Source: an uncultured virus (IMG/VR IMGVR_UViG_3300000425_000001) (Duplodnaviria > Heunggongvirae > Uroviricota > Caudoviricetes). From it: a DNA stretch of 64,000 nucleotides. The DNA lies in the IMG/VR virus record IMGVR_UViG_3300000425_000001; one strand, 5' to 3'. Every line of letters starts with the position of its first letter. Within the stretch, counting starts at the first letter, position 1. Under the pieces are notes generated by a model, which made no database searches, was not told where the DNA came from, and was given only the letters and a program-made list of their open reading frames with translations. Position numbers and translations under genes: made by a program. Shown here piece by piece: positions 1 to 26,147 of the stretch.

Positions 1-1706
1 TATGCTGCGGCTGTGCCAGCTACTTGACCTTCTGGTAGTTGATCCAGTGCTGCACCTACAAAGTATGATTCAATTGCTGTTTTAATTGCACTATCACCGC
101 CATACATTAGGTCATATGTAACAGCATCAATTAAGAATTCTACATCTCTACGACACTTAGCTCTATCGTATGTATCATCAAATGTATCCCATATGCCGCC
201 TGTTTGTGCTGCAATCCATGCTTCTAGATCATATGCAAACCATTCTTTACCGGCTTGTAATGCATCTTTTACGTTTTCTGCTCTAGCAAAAGGATTGTCT
301 GGATTAGCAAATGATAGTGTAGGAGTTGTGTAGGTTGGATCTAAACTGCCTTCGCCGATAAGATCTATAACTGTATTAAAGTATGCGTCATTAAGACCTT
401 CACCAGCAAAAGCACTGTCTGTTGCATCACGAAGATAACCAATAGCACCTAGTGTTGCATCAAGTTGATTTGAAATAACAAACTTTGAATTTGCTCTTTG
501 ATATGCTAGACCGTTTGTTACAGCGTTATAGTTTGTAACTAGTTCACGGTCATAACCTGCGCCTTCGAGAATTAATACACTGTCTCTGGCACACTTGTCT
601 TCATCAAAACCTGCTCCAGTTTGATATGTGTTTTTAACAAAGTCAACTGTTGCTTTTTGAATTCTTTCTTTTTCAGCTAGAATTAAGGATCTAGCAGTTG
701 TTCTTGCGTCGTCTTGATTTGTAAATGTTGGACCAGTTACAATACCTTGTCCAACTTTAATAGGAGTTGCATCTTTAATTGTGTAAACCGCGTCAGTATC
801 TGAGAACACAGCAGCGTTCTGAATATATGGAATGTTTACAAGATCATTAAAGATCATTGAGTTTCTTGATTGGATTGCACCAGCCGAAGCGCTAAACAAT
901 GCTTCACTATAGCCATCGGAGATAAGACCATAGTTACCAAACGATGTGTTTGAGTTAGTTAGTGAGCAAAAGCCGCCGCTTTCACAAAGAATCGATATGT
1001 CACAGGAGATAGTAAAGATCGAAACAAGCTGTGTGTTACCTCTGTTGAGGTGATGCACACCGATGCCACCCTGGTTATACTGTGTATAAGCGTCAACAAC
1101 CATTGAACGTAGACCAGTAACAACTGATCCATCAACACGCATACCTGTACCTGTTGTAGTGTATGATGTACAGTTTTGTACATATGGAGAACACATAATT
1201 GATCCAGCACTTCCATCCGGGGGGAACGATACCGCAGCACTTGGAGCAATGTAGTTGTTAAAACGCATGTCTTTGAGGAAACAACCGTTGTTAACCCAGA
1301 AAATATCCTTGTCTGGATTTTTAGGTTGTACAAAGGAAGTTCTAAGTGAGTCGCCAACAATAGCAACAAACGCAGGAAGTTTTACAGGATTGTCAACTGT
1401 GTGCTGTCCTGCTTTTACATATAGTGTTGATCCTTCTGGGATATTTTTTAGAGCGTAATCAATAGTAGCAAACGCATCGCCGATTGTTTTACCGTCGTTT
1501 TCATTTGAACCATTCATTGTAACATAGAAAACGTTATCAGCAGCATCTCTTGCGCCAAATTCTCTAATTTGTAATTCACCATCTTGTTCTCTTTTTAAGA
1601 ACATTTTGCCGTCATATGTGTTTACGGCAATTTCACCTAATTCTAACTGTTCTAAGGAAGGTACTTTTTTCGGCTCAGCACTTCTCTTAAGTCTAATTGT
1701 TGACAT
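1..1706 (-). CDS. Large virion structural/fibre protein, truncated by the window edge and missing from the ORF track
   Basis: ATG at 1706 with upstream GGGG SD. Frame reads MSTIRLKRSAEPKKVPSLEQLELGEIAVNTYDGK..FYVTMNGSNENDGKTIGDAFATIDYAL..VAIVGDSLRT and continues to the window edge with KCxRD repeats (FDEDKCARD, YDRAKCRRD) of the kind seen in giant T4-like phage structural proteins. Confidence 0.85.
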   Translation of the reverse strand, partial: MSTIRLKRSAEPKKVPSLEQLELGEIAVNTYDGKMFLKREQDGELQIREFGARDAADNVFYVTMNGSNENDGKTIGDAFATIDYALKNIPEGSTLYVKAGQHTVDNPVKLPAFVAIVGDSLRTSFVQPKNPDKDIFWVNNGCFLKDMRFNNYIAPSAAVSFPPDGSAGSIMCSPYVQNCTSYTTTGTGMRVDGSVVTGLRSMVVDAYTQYNQGGIGVHHLNRGNTQLVSIFTISCDISILCESGGFCSLTNSNTSFGNYGLISDGYSEALFSASAGAIQSRNSMIFNDLVNIPYIQNAAVFSDTDAVYTIKDATPIKVGQGIVTGPTFTNQDDARTTARSLILAEKERIQKATVDFVKNTYQTGAGFDEDKCARDSVLILEGAGYDRELVTNYNAVTNGLAYQRANSKFVISNQLDATLGAIGYLRDATDSAFAGEGLNDAYFNTVIDLIGEGSLDPTYTTPTLSFANPDNPFARAENVKDALQAGKEWFAYDLEAWIAAQTGGIWDTFDDTYDRAKCRRDVEFLIDAVTYDLMYGGDSAIKTAIESYFVGAALDQLPEGQVAGTAAA

Positions 1707-1762
1707 ATTTAGTTCCCCTATGCAGACGTGTATAATTATAGTAGTAGTTTATATACACATTC

Positions 1763-1768
1763 TATTTA
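1763..1768 (-). promoter_or_regulatory. Late promoter motif (GA)TAAATA
   Basis: TAAATA on the minus strand ~55 nt upstream of the 1706 start. Confidence 0.65.
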
Positions 1769-1874
1769 TCAAAGTCTTTTAAATCTATAAAGAAATATGC
1801 TATTTTAATCACATTTCTTCTTATAGTGTATATATGTCTATGAGGCAATATTGTGTATTAAAACAGGTTTTTTA

Positions 1875-3194
1875 CTAAAATGTACCTCCGTCTATATTTC
1901 CATCAATGCTATCAGCATAAACAGATTCTGTAAAGGTAGCACTGCCATTAACAGTTAGATTGCCCTTTTTATTTCCGTTTGTGTCGCCGATAATTACTTC
2001 ACCTTGATTGATTTCAAAATCAACTCCAGGTATTCTTACTTTGTCTATTGCTTCATTACCAATTGTAACTTCATTGTTTACAATAGGAGTTGACGGCTCT
2101 GCATTATTGCCAACAATAATATTATTTTCACCGTCAGTTAGTGTTTGTGCTGCATCATTACCAAACACTGCATTAAAATTTGCATCACTTGTAACATTGC
2201 CAAGACTGTTAAAGCCTAGTGCAATATTTTTCTGTCCTGTTTCTGTTGGATCATTCTTACCATCTGCTAGATCGTTTAACGAGAATAATCTGTCGTCAAT
2301 GGTTATTGTTCCAGAAAAATCTATGTTTCCTAAAATATCTACATTCTGTGTTACATTTAAATTTGAGAGTAGGTTGGCATCGCCGCCGAGGTAAAGTGTT
2401 TTTGCGATGCCAACCCCTCCGTCTACCACAACCGATCCACTGGTTATGCTGGTAGAGTCTAAGACATTGTCAAAATTGCCAATGCCTGTTACGTTTAAAT
2501 CTTCTTCGAGATTTAAATTACTTTGTTGTATGTTTACACTGCCGGTTCCATTGGCTATTAGGTTCATTGAACCGTCTGGATCTGCTTCGGTAACAAATAT
2601 ATTGTTTTCTTCTAAGACAATATTACCAAACTGGGCTCTTTGACCTTTAACGCCAAAGTCGCCTATGTACACTGCTCCGGTAATATATATTACGTTCGAT
2701 CCATTCAATTGTGAAGGCAAGTTACTACCGATAAAATTTAAAATACCTGATTGATAATCAAAGAACCATTCGTCATTATTACCCGAACCAGATGCAAATA
2801 ACTGTGTGCCTGTTGACTGTGGCGCTGACGCACTTGGTGCATCTGCATATACTTTAATTTGATAGGTTGAACCAAATTCAGGAGGTATCCAATTTACTAC
2901 ACTGGTAATCCAAGTTCTATTTGGACTAGCTGTAATATCTTCTAAACACTGCACTGCGGGGGTTCCGTTACTAGTATTATCATCGTCATATACTTCTAAA
3001 AGTGCGTTAGCTGTGGCAGGTTTAACATTGGGTATTAGATCCGAATCTACCCAGATTGTATCACCTCTAATTAAAAGCGGACTTGGAATAGATTCGTTAA
3101 CCGCTGCCTTGATCGAATTAACATCAGTTTTAGAAAAACCGTAACCTATCTTTTTCCATAAAAAGTCTAACTTCTGTGCGTCTTGAATTGCCAT
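1875..3194 (-). CDS. Virion structural/fibre-associated protein, 439 aa
   Basis: G/N/T-rich beta-repeats (GSVVVDGGVGIAK), C-terminal IDGGTF motif, abuts the upstream 1504-aa gene. Confidence 0.7.
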   Translation of the reverse strand: MAIQDAQKLDFLWKKIGYGFSKTDVNSIKAAVNESIPSPLLIRGDTIWVDSDLIPNVKPATANALLEVYDDDNTSNGTPAVQCLEDITASPNRTWITSVVNWIPPEFGSTYQIKVYADAPSASAPQSTGTQLFASGSGNNDEWFFDYQSGILNFIGSNLPSQLNGSNVIYITGAVYIGDFGVKGQRAQFGNIVLEENNIFVTEADPDGSMNLIANGTGSVNIQQSNLNLEEDLNVTGIGNFDNVLDSTSITSGSVVVDGGVGIAKTLYLGGDANLLSNLNVTQNVDILGNIDFSGTITIDDRLFSLNDLADGKNDPTETGQKNIALGFNSLGNVTSDANFNAVFGNDAAQTLTDGENNIIVGNNAEPSTPIVNNEVTIGNEAIDKVRIPGVDFEINQGEVIIGDTNGNKKGNLTVNGSATFTESVYADSIDGNIDGGTF

Positions 3195-21820: not shown

Positions 21821-22359
21821 TTTCCTACTTTACCGTAATTTTTTAATTTTTGACTTTTATCAAAGTTTTTATCAACTACAGTGTTGGTTTTTGGTAGAGT
21901 TTTTTGTAATTGTGCAATTAATCTACGTTTTTCTTTGGCATTTAGTTTTAGTGCAGCAGATTTAGTTGAACTGTAGGTACTAGACGCTTTAGTTGCTGTT
22001 TTTCCAGGAGATCCTGAAGCCTTTGCTGGTGCTGTAACGCCTTTTCCAGACATTTTTTGTTGAACTTTAGCTTGGAATATCTTTTTAATACGTGCAGGAG
22101 TCATAGGTGCTTGAAGATCAATATCACTAACATCAACTTTTTTCGATGATAGGTATTTTACTACGTCATCAGTAGAAGCTGTTTTGAATTTTTGCCCTTG
22201 TGTGCCCAGATGAGCTGCAAAGTCCTGTATCAGTTTATCCACAGATGCTTTTGCGTCTTTTTTGCCAGCTTTTTCTGCTCGCTTGATCATTCTTCCCTGT
22301 TTGGTTATAGGAATAAACTCATCAAGTTGTGATTCATTAAGTATATCGTCAAGTCTCAT
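21817..22359 (-). CDS. Basic hypothetical protein, candidate internal head protein, 180 aa
   Basis: K/A-rich; N-terminal ILNE/QLDE motifs; TAAATA-N5-ATG. Confidence 0.7.
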   Translation of the reverse strand: MRLDDILNESQLDEFIPITKQGRMIKRAEKAGKKDAKASVDKLIQDFAAHLGTQGQKFKTASTDDVVKYLSSKKVDVSDIDLQAPMTPARIKKIFQAKVQQKMSGKGVTAPAKASGSPGKTATKASSTYSSTKSAALKLNAKEKRRLIAQLQKTLPKTNTVVDKNFDKSQKLKNYGKVGN

Positions 22360-22371
22360 ACTATTATTTAG

Positions 22372-22863
22372 TATATCTGCTTCACAGATATAAGTTTTCG
22401 CTAATCGCTCAAACTATACACTCCGTTTTATGATATATAAGTAAGAAACTGAATAACATGAAGTTTTAAATATTCATGTAGATCGTTTCAGTCAGACGGA
22501 ACCTGTTACGGTTCCGTCGTCTCAAAGAAAAACTTCATGTGAGTCTTATCCAGCCGAGACCTGGAAGTAGGTTTTTTCTGCTACACAATGGGCTCTGACC
22601 TTTCCCAACCTACGTCGACATCGTAATAATATGTTTTTGTAAGCTAACAAGTTAATGTTAGTATACAGAATACATATTACTACTACCTCTCGCTTCGTTC
22701 CTATTGCTAAAGAGTTTTTATGTGTAATGTGCAGTTTTTTCGACAGCCAACAATCAGTCTATGCCAATCAAACACCCTACTACCGGATGCCGCTCAGCAT
22801 GTTACGTGTGCTCCTATACGGTAGCCTTTTCCACAGCGGTATTTTTGATCTGGCCCGCCAACC
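22372..22863 (-). ncRNA. Candidate large structured ncRNA (or structured DNA element) downstream of the GIY-YIG gene
   Basis: Longest intergenic gap in the window, with many nested inverted repeats (9-bp and 12-bp perfect stems, a ~60-nt hairpin) and possible pseudoknots. Confidence 0.6.
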
Positions 22864-23313
22864 TTATGTGTTGGATTGTTTTGCCTTGATTTGATGTTCT
22901 AGCAATGCCTGTTTGAGTTTGTCTGACCCGCCAACTCTAACATTGATGATACCGTTGTAGTATTCATCTGTTTCGAGTACACGCCTGTCAAACTGTTCTT
23001 TAGCCTCTAAGTAGGACATTTCGCCCCTGCCTTTACATAGGTATAGTATTTCTCTTGTAAATTTATCTTGGCCTAACTTTTCTACGTCTTCATTTAGCCT
23101 ATCACTAGATCCCCAATAGGTTTTCCAGTCTGATTCTTTTGTTCCGCGTCGTTTATTTTTTTTGCCTTTTAAGGGTGGCTTAGTAGTTTTAAATTTTGCT
23201 AGTTTTTTGCCTATGTATTTGCGATCATCAGTTAAATTGGTTATAATGTAAACAAATCCTTCATACTCGTCTGGTATTTCTGTGACTTCTTCACCATTAT
23301 ATGTCCAATTCAT
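22864..23313 (-). CDS. GIY-YIG family endonuclease, 149 aa
   Basis: GFVYIITN..RKYIGKK, YWGSS, FTREIL, catalytic-type E in YLEAKEQ, and YYN. Confidence 0.9.
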   Translation of the reverse strand: MNWTYNGEEVTEIPDEYEGFVYIITNLTDDRKYIGKKLAKFKTTKPPLKGKKNKRRGTKESDWKTYWGSSDRLNEDVEKLGQDKFTREILYLCKGRGEMSYLEAKEQFDRRVLETDEYYNGIINVRVGGSDKLKQALLEHQIKAKQSNT

Positions 23314-23320
23314 ACAATGT

Positions 23321-23542
23321 TTATCGATTTTTGTATTGCTTGCCTTTAAATTTGGTTTTGTACTCTTTTTGATTCTGCCTAATTTCAGTATTTCGTTCTT
23401 TTGCTATTGATCTAATGTCTCTAAGTGCCTTTTGTACAGTAGCATATGAACGAACTGAATTATTTCGTTCCCACCATTCATTTGCTGCAAAATATCGCAG
23501 ATATGCCTGTACTAATTCTTCGTGAAAGTTGTCTTCGTTCAT
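23321..23542 (-). CDS. Small basic helical protein, 73 aa
   Basis: ATGA overlap with the hemC stop; VQKALRDIRSIAKERNTEI. Confidence 0.7.
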   Translation of the reverse strand: MNEDNFHEELVQAYLRYFAANEWWERNNSVRSYATVQKALRDIRSIAKERNTEIRQNQKEYKTKFKGKQYKNR

Positions 23543-24378
23543 TTTATAGCAAATCCTGCCTTTAAACCTAATTCTTTGTAGCTAGATAACAAGCCTTCTA
23601 CCTTGCATGAAGTATTATTCTCATAATTCCATGCATTAATAGTTAACAAAGTTCCGCATACATTGGTAATAGATCCGATTGCAGTATCACAGTCACCGTC
23701 TATGACCTTTAACATTTCTCTTTCGGCCATAGCACATTGATATGTTTCTAAATGATTGATTTGATCCATTAAAAAATTAATTTCTGCGTCTTTTTTAGTT
23801 TGCACAGCAATAACACCCTGTCCTACAGCCGGTACTAGTTCTTCTAATGCCATAATTTTACTAATTTCATGACCTAGATTCATTGTATCAAGACCTGCCA
23901 TTGCTAAAATAGTAGCATCATACTCATTATCACGAATTTTTTGTATTCGTGTGTCGATATTACCTCGTATTGGCAGTATTTCACTGTTAGGAAACATTTT
24001 TGCAAGTTGTAACTTACGCCTAGGACTGCTTGTGCCTATTTTACACCCGTCTTCTAGGTTACCAATCACAGCATCACGTGGATCATGACGTTTCATAACA
24101 GCAAATATGTCTGTATCACTGTGTAGATCTTTAGGAAGGTCTTTAAAACTATGCACAGCTATATCAATATTATTATCCAACAGTTGTTGTTCGATTTTAG
24201 TAACAAATACACCTTTGCCTCCTATTTCAGCAATGTTCTTTTTGGCGTATATGTCACCGTCTGTTTTGATTGTGATTATTTCAACATCATAATCGCCTAC
24301 AGAGTTAATTTTACGTTTAACAATGTCTGCATATGCTAGTGCAAGTTTACTGCCTCTAACTCCTAGTCTAATTTTCAT
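23539..24378 (-). CDS. hemC: Hydroxymethylbilane synthase (porphobilinogen deaminase)
   Basis: RGSKLAL, GGKGVF, DIAVHSFKDLP, GTSSPRR, RGNIDTRI, PAVGQG and the cofactor Cys in DGDCDTAIG. Confidence 0.95.
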   Translation of the reverse strand: MKIRLGVRGSKLALAYADIVKRKINSVGDYDVEIITIKTDGDIYAKKNIAEIGGKGVFVTKIEQQLLDNNIDIAVHSFKDLPKDLHSDTDIFAVMKRHDPRDAVIGNLEDGCKIGTSSPRRKLQLAKMFPNSEILPIRGNIDTRIQKIRDNEYDATILAMAGLDTMNLGHEISKIMALEELVPAVGQGVIAVQTKKDAEINFLMDQINHLETYQCAMAEREMLKVIDGDCDTAIGSITNVCGTLLTINAWNYENNTSCKVEGLLSSYKELGLKAGFAIK

Positions 24379-26147
24379 TCTACTATTTCCAAATCGTTTG
24401 CATAAGAAGTAAAGCCATTTTCTTTAACAACCTTCAACACATTGTTTACTCTACCTACAAGTTCATCTTTGTGAGATATGAGGAAAATATTTTTATTACG
24501 TTCTCTAGTCATCTTTTTCAATACACCGATTGAATTTTCAACTCCTGCACTGTCCATACCGCTATCGATAAGCTCGTCAATAAACAACAAGTTGATGTTT
24601 TGATATAAACTTTCCCAAACATCGCGGAATGCAAAGCTCAGTCCTAAGATAAGCCTGTTGCGCTCTCCTCGACTTAGGTTATCAAAGTCTAGATCTTGAC
24701 CTAGTTGTGTAATTTCTACATTTAGGTCATTCTGGAATTGAACCTGATGCGGTAATCCAAGTGTATCTAGATAATAGGTAAGTCTGTTGTTGAGATATGC
24801 TAGGTTTTGATCAATAATCTTCTTGCGAATAAAACTATCCTTGTTTGTGAGCAGTTTTAACAAGAACTCTTGGTGTTCTTTAAACTCAGTTAGGTCGTTT
24901 ATTGAATCCCAATTAAGCTCTTGTATAGCAGTATTTTCTAGATCAGTAATTTGAACAAGATACGGATCAACTTCCACTTCTCTGTTTGCTAGTGCACTCT
25001 TTAGATTGTCAACATTGTTTCTATGTTCGTATGCTTCTTTAGCACTATCATAAAATGTTGTAGGCTTACCATTGATGTCACCAATTTCTTCAAGTGCTAT
25101 AATAACTTCTGAACACTTTGCATTAATTTCTTGTGCATATGCTGTTGCATCAGCAAGTTCTTTGTTTTTACGCTCTGCAATTTCAGCTTTTTTATCTGCA
25201 TGAAGTTCTTGACCACACGTATAACATGTTGCATCTTCTAGTTCTAGAATATCTTTATTTGCTTTTTCTACGCTCTTGTTTGCTCGTTGCAGTGCTGGTT
25301 CTAGGGTGCTTAGTTCTTTTCTAAGAGCTAGTATAGAGTTATTGTGTTCTGTCCAACTTGCTAATTTTTCGTGTGCTTCTAATTCTGTTTCAATATCTAA
25401 TTTTTCTAATTCTTCGATAGCAGATACAAGTTTTTTAAGGTCAGTATTTTTCTTAGCAACCCAGGCACGTTGATTATTTTTTAAACTATCAATTGTAGTT
25501 TGTATTTTTTGATTGGCACTTTCGATTGCCTGAATTTTAAATGTCTCTTCTGTGATTGCTTGCTTGGTTGTTTTTACTTGCTCTTTGAGTGACTCTGCTT
25601 TTTCGCTTAGAATTGTAATTCCAAGCAGTTGTTCGATAATAGCACGTTGGTCGTTTGCTCTCATACTTAGGAAAGGTTCACTATAGGTGTTGAGTGCAAC
25701 AATATGCTTAAACATATCGTGACTCATTCCTAGTAATTCTTGAATAGATTCCTGTGTTTTACGACTGTCGCCTTGTGATTCGTCTTCTTCGACTTTTTCA
25801 GTATTATTAACATAAAACTTTAAAATATTTGGAGAACGACCTCGTTCAATCCTGTATTCTATGTTATTTTTTTCAAAAGACAGTGTAACTAACATTCCTT
25901 TTGAGTTAGTTTTATTAATTAGATTGTTTCTTTTAATATTAGTAAGTGCTTGACCATACAGTGCATAGCTAAGAGCATTAATAATAGTAGTTTTTCCAGT
26001 GCCGTTACGACTTCCGCTGTCGTCTCCGCCTTGATCTAAGTTTTCACCAAGAACAAGCGTAAGACTTTGCTGATCAAAGTCTACACCTTGACTGACGTTG
26101 CCTACACTCATGAAGTTTTTTACAGTTAAATCTTTGATTTTGATCAT
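24375..26147 (-). CDS. gp46: Recombination ATPase subunit, T4 gp46/SbcC/Rad50-like
   Basis: KNFMSVGN, Walker A NGTGKT, zinc hook CYTC, signature LSRGE, Walker B LLFIDE, ISH. Confidence 0.96.
   Translation of the reverse strand: MIKIKDLTVKNFMSVGNVSQGVDFDQQSLTLVLGENLDQGGDDSGSRNGTGKTTIINALSYALYGQALTNIKRNNLINKTNSKGMLVTLSFEKNNIEYRIERGRSPNILKFYVNNTEKVEEDESQGDSRKTQESIQELLGMSHDMFKHIVALNTYSEPFLSMRANDQRAIIEQLLGITILSEKAESLKEQVKTTKQAITEETFKIQAIESANQKIQTTIDSLKNNQRAWVAKKNTDLKKLVSAIEELEKLDIETELEAHEKLASWTEHNNSILALRKELSTLEPALQRANKSVEKANKDILELEDATCYTCGQELHADKKAEIAERKNKELADATAYAQEINAKCSEVIIALEEIGDINGKPTTFYDSAKEAYEHRNNVDNLKSALANREVEVDPYLVQITDLENTAIQELNWDSINDLTEFKEHQEFLLKLLTNKDSFIRKKIIDQNLAYLNNRLTYYLDTLGLPHQVQFQNDLNVEITQLGQDLDFDNLSRGERNRLILGLSFAFRDVWESLYQNINLLFIDELIDSGMDSAGVENSIGVLKKMTRERNKNIFLISHKDELVGRVNNVLKVVKENGFTSYANDLEIVE

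Follow-up and report, generated by a model that had tools for sequence, protein, structure and literature searches.

The locus described here lies in a 64,000-nt stretch of DNA (the window) from IMG/VR record IMGVR_UViG_3300000425_000001, an uncultured virus of the Caudoviricetes. On the minus strand, a 73-aa gene precedes the gene for a 149-aa GIY-YIG nuclease, and this is followed by a gap that, as the initial annotation stated, begins at the nuclease stop codon (TAA, 22864-22866). The reading frames bear it out: stops abound in each of the three minus-strand frames across 22360-22866, and the gap's sole plus-strand ORF (22655-22894, 79 aa) is without a Pfam match. It is not the only large gap in the window, as had been claimed, because 1370-1874 (505 nt) is likewise free of ORFs of ≥60 aa. 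The genes and features considered below are collected in Table 1.

The nuclease had been described as a minimal protein, essentially one domain with a Lys/Arg-rich insert and no separate DNA-binding domain, and our searches bear this out. A single domain, PF19835 SegE_GIY-YIG, takes up residues 3-123 of the 149 (Pfam E 3.2e-36; PHROG phrog_447, E 1.4e-39), the protein stops 26 residues past it, and the basic insert is present and conserved among relatives. Residues Y22, Y33, G35, R87, E88, E103 and N120, which we take to be the conserved GIY-YIG catalytic residues, are invariant in 12 relatives. Sequence searches returned no relative of solved structure. The C-terminal tail varies in length and is partly encoded by the leader of the RNA described below, and this leader persists where the GIY-YIG gene is absent. 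We considered whether the gap might be what remains of a C-terminal domain once carried by a longer Seg protein, and rejected this because the short form is conserved (146 aa in the Melnitz homologue; PHROG profile length 148) and the gap shows covariation of the RNA type. The product of the 73-aa gene has no Pfam or PHROG match.

Table 1. Coordinates of genes, RNA elements and sequence motifs at the locus (positions in the window; paired strands separated by a slash or "with").
Feature	Position	Strand	Remarks
73-aa gene	23321-23542	minus	upstream of nuclease slot in T4-like contexts; tblastn matches in many loci
GIY-YIG nuclease gene, 149 aa, SegE-type	22864-23313	minus	last codons and TAA inside RNA 5′ end
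10 AGGCA motifs, RNA strand	22886-23561	minus	across nuclease gene and upstream 73-aa gene
RNA 5′ domain	22742-22874	minus	long-range helix H1 around three hairpins; H1/H5 pseudoknot
H1	22874-22869 with 22752-22747	minus	99.3% paired; 5/6 pairs doubly changed
H2	22859-22855/22839-22835	minus	98% paired
H3a/H3	22834-22806	minus	hairpin inside H1
H4	22800-22794/22767-22761	minus	96.8% paired
H5	22759-22755/22746-22742	minus	96.9% paired; 5/5 pairs doubly changed
H12, second pseudoknot	UACAC 22726-22722 with 22586-22582	minus	94.7% paired; 5/5 doubly changed
Junction strand and H6	22687-22726	minus	UACAC strand, then hairpin H6
H6	22714-22711/22690-22687	minus	96% paired; 4/4 doubly changed; conserved loop GGAACGARG
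H7, variable-length hairpin	22623-22683	minus	0 to ~90 nt among relatives
H9 enclosing H10	22567-22618	minus	region with ambiguous closing helix H8
H9	22613-22608/22572-22567	minus	100% paired
H10	22607-22604/22592-22589	minus	96.3% paired
Box A, CUCACAUGAAG	22533-22543	minus	first copy of co-varying direct repeat
H11	22495-22518	minus	9 bp, 6-nt loop, between box A and box B; 98.9% paired
Box B, CUACAUGAA	22473-22481	minus	second copy of direct repeat
Local hairpin and U-rich tract	22440-22479 (22479-22473 with 22462-22456)	minus	similar hairpin and U-rich tail in relatives
3′ module	22372-22415	minus	G-A hairpin then terminal hairpin; kept in most relatives
Tandem G-A pair hairpin AGUUU-GAGCGnnAGCGA-AAACU	22415-22393	minus	part of 3′ module
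Terminal co-varying hairpin	22392-22372	minus	part of 3′ module

The minus strand of 22372-22880 encodes a conserved, heavily folded structured RNA. A first sequence pattern returned 19 matches, 18 of them homologous, a second at least 120 stretches, and the RNA profile was matched by 138 of 140 loci, mostly from IMG/VR; 102 distinct full-length sequences were aligned. The initial annotation had proposed a structured non-coding element here and suggested looking for covariation downstream of nuclease homologs, and such covariation is abundant. Across the 102 sequences, the 71 proposed pairs are 93.2% paired, as against 33-46% when the partners are slid, and both sides have changed at 43 of the 71, a result that none of 500 shuffles equalled. 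Conserved G-U pairs are frequent in the alignment, which identifies the minus strand as the RNA strand and agrees with the earlier proposal that the RNA is co-oriented with the nuclease gene.

The fold contains two pseudoknots, one of which arises because the H5 loop contains the 3′ strand of H1. Several pairings noticed in the window sequence alone are supported by comparison: in the 102-sequence alignment GTAGGTT/AACCTAC is fully paired and CCGCT/AGCGG is 98% paired with double changes at 4 of its 5 pairs, and in another covariation analysis the terminal hairpin ranked top. The perfect 9-bp hairpin (H11) is also conserved, with changes that are mostly none or one-sided, and occurs in all 102 aligned sequences, including ones retrieved by a pattern free of H11. 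The ~60-nt hairpin (H7) is a real hairpin of variable length, with short GAAA-loop forms at two loci (L009 and L010), but is missing from some relatives. A proposed loop pairing, GTCAGA/TCTGAC, which would join UGACU at 22494-22490 to the loop of H10, AAAGGUCAGAG, is compatible with the fold (97.6% paired), although the changes there are one-sided only. Other suggestions fell away: TCCAG/CTGGA, GTCGA/TCGAC and AGATC/GATCT are jointly 75.8% paired, a value equalled by 46 of 500 shuffles, and a 12-bp inverted repeat (22456-22467/22529-22540) was seen in the window sequence only, the relatives inspected having a local hairpin there. To our knowledge, few RNAs are so large and so intricately folded, with pseudoknots that are conserved, and those of this kind have repeatedly proved to be ribozymes, guides or scaffolds.

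Folding energy lies below that of shuffled sequences on both strands (z -3.2 minus, -2.9 plus; 0 of 100 shuffles equally low), and the stretch is single-copy in the 70-kb record. ARAGORN reported no tRNA or tmRNA in the window, and Rfam 15 gave no match there at gathering score, so that the RNA is without a match to a known family in that release. At E ≤10 the only Rfam matches, with E 4.9-7.5, were to a microRNA model, on both strands, and to an HDV-like ribozyme model; the latter, the best ribozyme score, has an E of 7.5 and is at chance level. A small peptide encoded in the 5′ domain (frame KVGGP...) was also considered and discarded, since the changes are compensatory within the helix and not synonymous.

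The RNA family is undescribed and large, and is carried by uncultured marine T4-like, partly jumbo, phages. Cultured phages gave no blastn match to the RNA; of 16 pattern matches in genome contigs, 13 were due to chance and the 3 true ones lay on phage-like contigs in MAG bins. Our literature searches found no description of the RNA, and four of its motifs had no match in 6 supplement files of a catalogue of phage structured RNAs (PMC10690425); the catalogue's files 1, 2 and 4, which are not among these 6, may list the family. Contigs from 4 marine metatranscriptome runs, all of one study, run from the RNA 5′ domain across the GIY-YIG stop codon, as those covering 22805-23312 and 22693-22879 do; contigs of this kind are uninformative on ends, strand and membership in a single transcript. 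At 90% likeness they leave 23606-25600 uncovered and 22270-22603 almost so, a pattern that cannot prove absence. Simple promoter and terminator scans of the minus strand gave nothing above chance.

Boxes A and B, on either side of H11, change in lockstep. Their 7-mers are identical in 95 of 102 sequences, representing 11 haplotypes, while shuffled A/B pairings averaged 38.7 identical and never exceeded 50. For the variable box columns, the top mutual-information partner is the equivalent position of the other box; no third column has high mutual information to the boxes, and among 76 sequences no 7-nt internal complement occurs at a consistent place. Lockstep evolution suggests that the boxes base-pair, either with a partner from elsewhere or with DNA of the same locus. 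Readings of the box haplotypes as codons, anticodons or stop/start junctions were weighed and are not put forward. We also asked whether the hairpin segment is a mobile insertion with a target duplication, and dropped the idea as the 102 aligned sequences include no empty site; three sequences missed by the hairpin regular expression carry a variant hairpin there.

Downstream of H11, the local hairpin and U-rich tract may constitute a weak intrinsic terminator, which the simple terminator scan passed over because its stem is AU-rich. The 3′ module that follows is likewise found after other RNA classes. Indeed the entire 3′ architecture (box A, hairpin, box B, hairpin, G-A module) is common to sister classes whose 5′ cores differ and whose box sequences are quite different. 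In these classes the boxes were recognised by position, and a scan for the longest direct repeat gave 8-mers against shuffled maxima of 9-12, which is not significant alone.

The RNA is preceded by a strand-specific array of AGGC motifs. AGGCA occurs 62 times in the whole window, against 39 expected, and 10 of these fall within 22886-23561. Across 52 non-redundant loci, AGGC density climbs to 1.6 per 100 nt directly ahead of the RNA, while the opposite strand has ~0. Synonymous resampling yielded 2.6 and 0.8 motifs where 9 and 4 are observed, with 0 of 2000 resamplings as high, and the Melnitz nuclease homologue, which is without the RNA, has 1 motif; these two results rule out the array as a by-product of protein sequence. 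The array is imposed on synonymous sites of whichever genes lie upstream. Peaks at a 24-nt AGGC spacing partly reflect homologous positions in related genes, and we claim no such periodicity. Because the array spans the nuclease gene, that gene lies inside the element and does not merely adjoin it. We know of no close precedent for either feature, the direct-repeat boxes evolving in lockstep or the strand-specific AGGC array.

The initial annotation had envisaged a nuclease-ncRNA system in which the RNA could supply specificity to the GIY-YIG protein, possibly through a variable guide-like segment in a conserved scaffold. In a census of 90 RNA loci with 700 nt of upstream sequence, a GIY-YIG gene was present upstream in 82 (70 directly, 12 farther off). 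A resolvase-like nuclease occupied the same upstream slot in 5 loci, an endonuclease VII gene lay downstream of the RNA in 1, and 2 loci, in another genome context, had no nuclease match beside the RNA. The distance between nuclease and RNA varies among loci; at one of them (L091), a GIY-YIG fragment lies 94 nt ahead of the RNA. The best 80 relatives of the nuclease (69-89% identity) comprised 45 with the RNA, 29 without a profile match, each having at least 150 nt of downstream sequence, and 6 that were not assessable, giving a denominator of 74. The majority of the 29 are followed by other RNA-like cores, and at least six different cores accompany a nuclease clade that is 70-78% identical. 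The Melnitz nuclease, at 74% identity, has a downstream gap of just 148 nt, without a match to the RNA. More broadly, the nuclease family is found in 816 cultured-phage records, cyanophages among them, and in differing contexts: in S-RIM8 a relative lies ahead of tRNA-Arg (~200 nt before the tRNA gene), and in ACP17 a relative is a lone gene on the opposite strand. No filled/empty pair of close relatives was found within the RNA family.

Part of the proposed system therefore stands: the RNA is co-oriented with a nuclease gene that adjoins it in 88 of 90 loci. The partnership is not supported, since there is no obligate pairing: 8 of 90 RNA loci lack a GIY-YIG gene, the nuclease is without the RNA in 29 of 74, and cultured phages carry the nuclease in other settings. 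Because the RNA is paired with varied nucleases or none, and the nuclease occurs without the RNA, specificity supplied by the RNA is not supported. Nor was a variable guide-like segment seen in the 102-sequence alignment, in which the variable parts are length-changing hairpins. The fallback of an independent large ncRNA is the best fit.

Taken together, these data lead us to favour, with moderate confidence, an autonomous RNA gene whose leader has come to house a free-standing endonuclease of the homing type. Judged by sequence comparison, the RNA is the resident, autonomous element: its fold and sequence are constant whatever the upstream gene, and it occurs in other genome contexts too. Its product is a multi-domain, doubly pseudoknotted molecule of ~420-500 nt, presumably read as the tail of a transcript that also bears the 73-aa and nuclease genes, starting within the last codons of the upstream ORF and ending at the hairpins of 22479-22372. 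Members of the SegE-type family are taken as homing endonucleases, and the nuclease would be a SegE/SegB-like enzyme of this type, lodged much like T4 SegB in its tRNA cluster. The conserved RNA gene probably serves it as a landing site, and the enzyme is presumably not RNA-guided. The RNA itself might act as a stable folded molecule whose identical, exposed boxes each pair with the same kind of nucleic-acid partner, and the AGGC-rich leader could conceivably be a zone for protein loading or processing. Several observations count against a lodger. Nuclease and gp46 identities to the window are roughly in step, which fits vertical descent, and the AGGC array places the nuclease gene within the element. 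A nuclease stands beside the RNA in 88 of 90 loci, far above the usual patchy spread of homing genes, and the occurrence of two unrelated nuclease folds in one slot makes a functional need for a nuclease possible.

The identity of the boxes admits a different reading, in which the locus is a cis-acting R-loop or origin-type element. Since A and B are identical, the template strand at box B is complementary to A, and box A could be presented to it so as to stabilise an RNA-DNA hybrid. Lying just before the terminal hairpins, the hybrid might prime replication; alternatively, it might be cut by the neighbouring structure-specific nuclease, leading to recombination-dependent replication next to gp46. 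This is the only partner that requires just that A equals B, and it fits the 95/102 identity, the 11 haplotypes, the differing boxes of sister classes and the lack of an internal complement. Two of the three nuclease families beside the RNA are of junction-resolvase types, gp46 adjoins the locus, and the DNA past box B is locally the most AT-rich (GC 0.30 at 22300-22499). We nevertheless consider such an element distinctly unlikely, as the transcription units meeting at the site converge and do not diverge, and the RNA is also found away from replication genes, in two further genome contexts; structure-specific cleavage, moreover, is not known for SegE-type proteins. A broader form of this idea would treat the entire 1.2-1.5 kb unit (AGGC leader over two genes, doubly pseudoknotted core, twin boxes and nuclease slot) as one undescribed machine making an RNA-positioned DNA break or replication start, a box pairing with own-locus DNA or a matching target and the neighbouring nuclease cutting the resulting structure. 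We think this unlikely but give it some weight; if true, marine T4-like phages would have a programmed way of breaking DNA or starting replication. Should the RNA have no function of its own, it might be the cis-regulatory 3′ end of the nuclease mRNA, limiting a potentially harmful nuclease, with structure, boxes and AGGC motifs governing processing, stability or termination of an early transcript. The RNA does begin inside the ORF, the AGGC array lies within the mRNA body, RNA-library contigs join gene and RNA, and an own promoter was not found in most loci, although a late-promoter-like TATAAATA stands ~60 nt upstream in L010. However, a stability element would need far less than ~420 nt, two pseudoknots and single strands that hardly vary, and the RNA is retained where the upstream genes are of quite another kind or the context is another, which makes this reading rather improbable.

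We regard as very unlikely a ribonucleoprotein in which the minimal GIY-YIG nuclease has the RNA as its scaffold or is targeted by it, perhaps via the boxes. A bare catalytic domain with a basic insert would suit it, as would the upstream GIY-YIG gene in 82 of 90 RNA loci, with an ORF overlapping the RNA 5′ end, and the fact that close relatives lacking the RNA mostly have another ORF-free, box-bearing stretch downstream; HEARO/IscB provides the precedent of a nuclease-associated RNA that proved to be a guide. Yet the same RNA class also stands beside an unrelated resolvase-like protein, or none, the clade of 70-78% identical nucleases has at least six RNA cores, the nuclease family is widespread in cultured phages without such an RNA, and the alignment has no long variable unstructured segment, the boxes being 7-11 nt and nearly constant. 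Scarcely probable, finally, is a self-processing ribozyme or spliced element in which the core recognises the boxes as equivalent cleavage/ligation sites and releases or removes the ~60-nt hairpin segment separating them. Identical sequence at two hairpin-flanking sites, pseudoknots with conserved single strands, and adjoining nuclease genes such as are found with group I introns all speak for it, but no guide sequence co-varies with the boxes and no Rfam ribozyme or intron matches. A group I core has a P3/P7 pseudoknot with P4-P6 and P8 elements and sits inside a split host gene, whereas here no hairpin intervenes between the two 3′ strands of the H1/H5 pseudoknot, which closes around three hairpins, each on its own. 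Flanking exons are absent, and some loci, L021 among them, have no downstream gene on the RNA strand.

For the preferred reading, a lodged homing-type nuclease, the closest comparison is with T4 SegA-G. SegB is located in the T4 tRNA gene cluster, and the window nuclease is likewise a SegE-type GIY-YIG protein wedged beside a conserved structured-RNA gene, with relatives scattered over many phage contexts that are unrelated to one another. A linker-joined, separate DNA-binding domain is present in I-TevI and the T4 Seg proteins; in contrast, the window nuclease is just 149 aa without a separate C-terminal one, is not sporadic (82 of 90 loci), and has an ORF that overlaps the RNA. The HEARO/IscB omega-RNA is similar in that a structured RNA steadily adjoins a small nuclease of a homing-endonuclease-type family. 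Here, however, the fold is GIY-YIG and not HNH/RuvC, the RNA is downstream of the gene, no guide segment is visible, and RNA and nuclease are each found alone. The ColE1 RNA II pre-primer is a long folded transcript that pairs with template DNA; by analogy, an upstream segment of the window RNA could pair with the template near its 3′ end, which would explain the need for identical boxes, although the two RNAs have no sequence relation and no antisense regulator is seen here.

The Ssn proteins are described as single-domain GIY-YIG single-strand DNA nucleases (CDD cd10448) with dispersed hairpin repeats flanking their genes (PMC11893778). As far as that source describes them, they share with the window a single-domain GIY-YIG protein and a conserved hairpin near its gene, but the window protein is of the PF19835 SegE type and its hairpin is single-copy within a G-U-paired RNA, not a dispersed repeat. 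GOLLD and ROOL, large phage- or prophage-associated structured RNAs for which the account consulted gives no function (PMC12286853), resemble the window RNA in being large, intricate, phage-borne, strongly covarying and non-coding. The window RNA is smaller than these, has no Rfam sequence or structure match, and comes with twin boxes, an AGGC array and a nuclease slot. Polynucleobacter-1 (RF01718) appears in PMC2864571 as a motif that may be cis-regulatory, from Burkholderiales and fresh-water/estuary samples. Although the window RNA has a different 5′ core, without an RF01718 match, one of 20 relatives scanned (L213) carries a full-length RF01718 copy (107.8 bits) directly after a homologous nuclease gene, followed by the box-hairpin-box 3′ architecture seen in the window. 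The orphan motif Polynucleobacter-1 thereby gains a setting, as one interchangeable core of such RNAs.

The gap 3′ of the GIY-YIG nuclease gene contains a real and widespread RNA, doubly pseudoknotted, lying on the nuclease strand and belonging to a family outside Rfam. A pattern search of IMG/VR with the 9-bp hairpin recovered 19 loci, 18 of them homologous to the gap, and a second pattern, from a different part of the RNA, recovered at least 120 stretches. Of the 140 loci collected by then, 138 matched a profile built on the first alignment, the two misses being the cultured phage Melnitz and one chance hit. RNAalifold predicted 48 pairs from 11 sequences, with compensatory changes at 22. 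Our pair model (71 pairs, 14 helices) was counted on 102 distinct sequences, aligned with MAFFT without fitting to the structure. In this alignment 93.2% of cells were paired, as opposed to 33–46% when the 3′ partners were slid by 1–3 columns, a control that is somewhat flattering because the model was partly derived from the same sequences. Two-sided changes occur at 43 pairs (798 cells), and none of 500 shuffles reached the observed pairing or covariation. The structured RNA proposed in the initial annotation is thus borne out by its homologues and their covariation.

Pseudoknot 1 places the 3′ strand of helix H1 inside the loop of H5, with double changes at 5 pairs in each helix. Pseudoknot 2 (H12) joins a junction strand to the H9 internal loop, and all 5 of its pairs are doubly changed. 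Pairing of the H10 loop with UGACU, 3′ of the invariant hairpin (H11), is found in 97.6% of cells and shows one-sided variation only, and two alternative forms of the closing helix H8 compete, each more than 93% paired. H15, around box A, is only 50% paired in the 102-sequence alignment and is not claimed. Several helices conserve G-U pairs that would become A-C mismatches on the opposite strand, which assigns the RNA to the minus strand and upholds the earlier argument on this point. Other proposals fared less well: conservation of TCCAG/CTGGA, GTCGA/TCGAC and AGATC/GATCT was not found on comparison, and the 12-bp inverted repeat was seen in the window sequence only.

As described earlier, a large gap directly follows the nuclease gene. 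It has stops in all three minus-strand frames, but it is not quite the only large gap in the window, a second being listed in the table. No tRNA or tmRNA was found in 22372–22863, nor did covariance-model comparison with Rfam 15 match the window RNA to a known family, at gathering scores or with E values up to 10. The fold beats shuffles on both strands (z −3.2 and −2.9).

Coordinates of features, in the window unless another locus is named
Feature	Coordinates	Strand	Description
GIY-YIG nuclease ORF	22864-23313	minus	149 aa; residues 3-123 match Pfam PF19835 SegE_GIY-YIG, E 3.2e-36
H1 5′ strand	22874-22869		in last codons of nuclease ORF, with conserved AAGGCAAA motif
Box A	22543-22533	minus	direct repeat of box B
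Box B	22481-22473	minus	direct repeat of box A
RNA 3′ region	22372-22470		possible kissing or alternative pairings
AGGCA motifs	22886-23561	RNA strand	10 copies
Porphobilinogen deaminase gene	23539-24378	minus	hemC-like; Pfam E 1.7e-66; between gp46 and 73-aa gene
Second ORF-free stretch	1370-1874		505 nt; neither strand has an ORF ≥60 aa
Stop-codon-bridging contigs (examples)	22805-23312, 22693-22879, 22710-22879		metatranscriptome
Locus L091, GIY-YIG fragment	2062-2160 (oriented)		33 residues; 94 nt before RNA
Locus L091, full GIY-YIG copy	878-1300 (oriented)		~950 nt upstream
Locus L213, RF01718	1465-1611		directly 3′ of homologous GIY-YIG gene; also L209 group
Cyanophage S-RIM8 (L238)	2465-3183		nuclease homologue ~200 nt 5′ of tRNA-Arg

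The 5′ start of the RNA precedes the gap, and its H1 5′ strand and AAGGCAAA sequence are also present at loci without a GIY-YIG gene. At about 20 loci the 3′ two-thirds are the same and the 5′ domain is different. The RNA is modular, and its form is kept regardless of upstream content. After the invariant hairpin come a local hairpin and its U-rich tail, a conserved tandem G-A hairpin and a strongly co-varying terminal hairpin. Many relatives have ACUUCGU at the tip of the hairpin that follows box B, and its complement ACGAAGU occurs in the following spacer and the terminal-hairpin loop.

Boxes A and B, which flank the invariant hairpin, obey an identity rule. The 7-mer of one matches that of the other in 95 of 102 sequences and through 11 haplotypes (shuffled pairings gave a mean of 38.7 identical rows and a maximum of 50), and 2 of the 7 non-identical pairs are alignment slips. 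Where rows depart from the majority sequence, the same change is seen in both boxes in 37 of 44, and the best mutual-information partner of every variable box column is the equivalent position of the other box. No complementary partner of the boxes was found within the RNA. Sister classes observe this rule although their box sequences are unrelated, and base pairing is therefore favoured over protein recognition.

A strand-specific AGGC(A) array spans the 700–800 nt 5′ of the RNA, with a mean of 10 AGGC copies per 700 nt. Among 52 non-redundant loci, AGGCA density rises from ~0.1 to 1.6 per 100 nt toward the RNA, is at background within it and is ~0 on the opposite strand. Synonymous-codon resampling gave far fewer copies than observed for the window nuclease gene (9 against 2.6 expected), the 73-aa gene upstream of the nuclease slot (4 against 0.8) and a resolvase-like gene in that slot at locus L046 (13 against 3.2), with 0 of 2000 resamplings as high in each case; the excess is therefore independent of the encoded proteins. 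It is absent from gp46 (5 against 5.9) and short of significance in the resolvase-like locus L009 (5 against 2.5), and the Melnitz nuclease homologue (74% protein identity), which is without the RNA, has 1 copy.

The source virus record is 70 kb, and window genes include a T4-type baseplate protein, porphobilinogen deaminase and a gp46-like recombination nuclease subunit whose closest relatives are in Pseudomonas jumbo phage PA5oct (50% identity). The porphobilinogen deaminase gene is absent from this position in all related loci compared. Contigs from four runs of a single marine metatranscriptome study cover the nuclease gene and the 5′ domain of the RNA, and some of them bridge the stop codon; being assembled, they attest to presence in RNA libraries but not to transcript ends, strand, abundance or the existence of one continuous transcript. 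We found no published description of the RNA in the literature searched, nor in the portion searched of the supplements to a catalogue listing more than ten thousand candidate phage RNAs. Prokaryote genome collections gave three true matches, all on phage-like contigs binned into MAGs. These contigs (73–335 kb; MAGs named Crocinitomicaceae and Neomarinimicrobiota) carry gp46, the 73-aa gene, the GIY-YIG gene and the RNA in that order, and probably represent phage sequence misplaced in bacterial bins.

The nuclease family conserves its catalytic motif residues and varies in its C-terminal tail. At least 591 relatives were confirmed in IMG/VR; among the best 80 (69–89% identity), 45 have the RNA downstream, 29 with at least 150 nt downstream lack a profile match and 6 could not be judged. 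Most of the 29 are followed by other ORF-free stretches (400–780 nt, about six similarity groups), several of which close with the architecture seen here and carry boxes of different sequence (GCAUGAUG, AGAUAAUG, ACAUGAUG, GGGUAAUrAC). The first domain of one group is a full-length Polynucleobacter-1 RNA (RF01718, 107.8 bits), and this orphan motif of 2010 thereby gains a phage context. At L213 it opens a longer box-bearing non-coding stretch. Among cultured phages, blastn found no match to the RNA; the protein family, phrog_447, occurs in 816 records at 30–46% identity, in addition to Melnitz, in unrelated settings: the Acidovorax phage ACP17 homologue is a lone opposite-strand gene, and that of Melnitz lies within a run of small genes. 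This clearly GIY-YIG family bears the label "NAD synthetase" in PHROG (phrog_447) and in many phage entries of GenBank, apparently an annotation error that has spread between records.

Neighbouring nuclease genes were counted at 90 RNA loci with at least 700 nt upstream. A GIY-YIG gene is directly upstream at 70, and at 12 it lies 100–1100 nt away, usually with a small ORF between. A resolvase-like nuclease occupies the same slot at 5 (PHROG RusA-like, E 1.2e-17 for L009), 1, in a tail-fibre context, is followed by an endonuclease VII gene, and 2, in another genome context, are without a nuclease match. L091, one of the 12, has both a full GIY-YIG copy and a fragment that looks like a decayed or duplicated copy.

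Under two rival readings, the RNA could be the partner of the nuclease, or a box in the RNA could pair with template DNA at the other box to form an R-loop. The R-loop ranks first among the rivals because that template DNA is the only partner complementary by construction. The presence of a nuclease at 88 of the 90 loci, the failure to find an empty/filled pair of close relatives and the AGGC array, which places the nuclease gene inside the element, all count against a mere lodger, and for these reasons we grant the two readings jointly a small but appreciable chance. The protein family and its many contexts in other phages point the other way, as do the replacement of GIY-YIG in situ by another nuclease fold, the decayed appearance of the L091 copy and a nuclease tail whose codons run into sequence of the resident RNA. 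We infer from these that the GIY-YIG gene encodes a homing-type endonuclease of the free-standing kind and has settled in the RNA leader, much as T4 SegB is located among tRNA genes, a cluster echoed by the tRNA-Arg neighbourhood of the S-RIM8 homologue.
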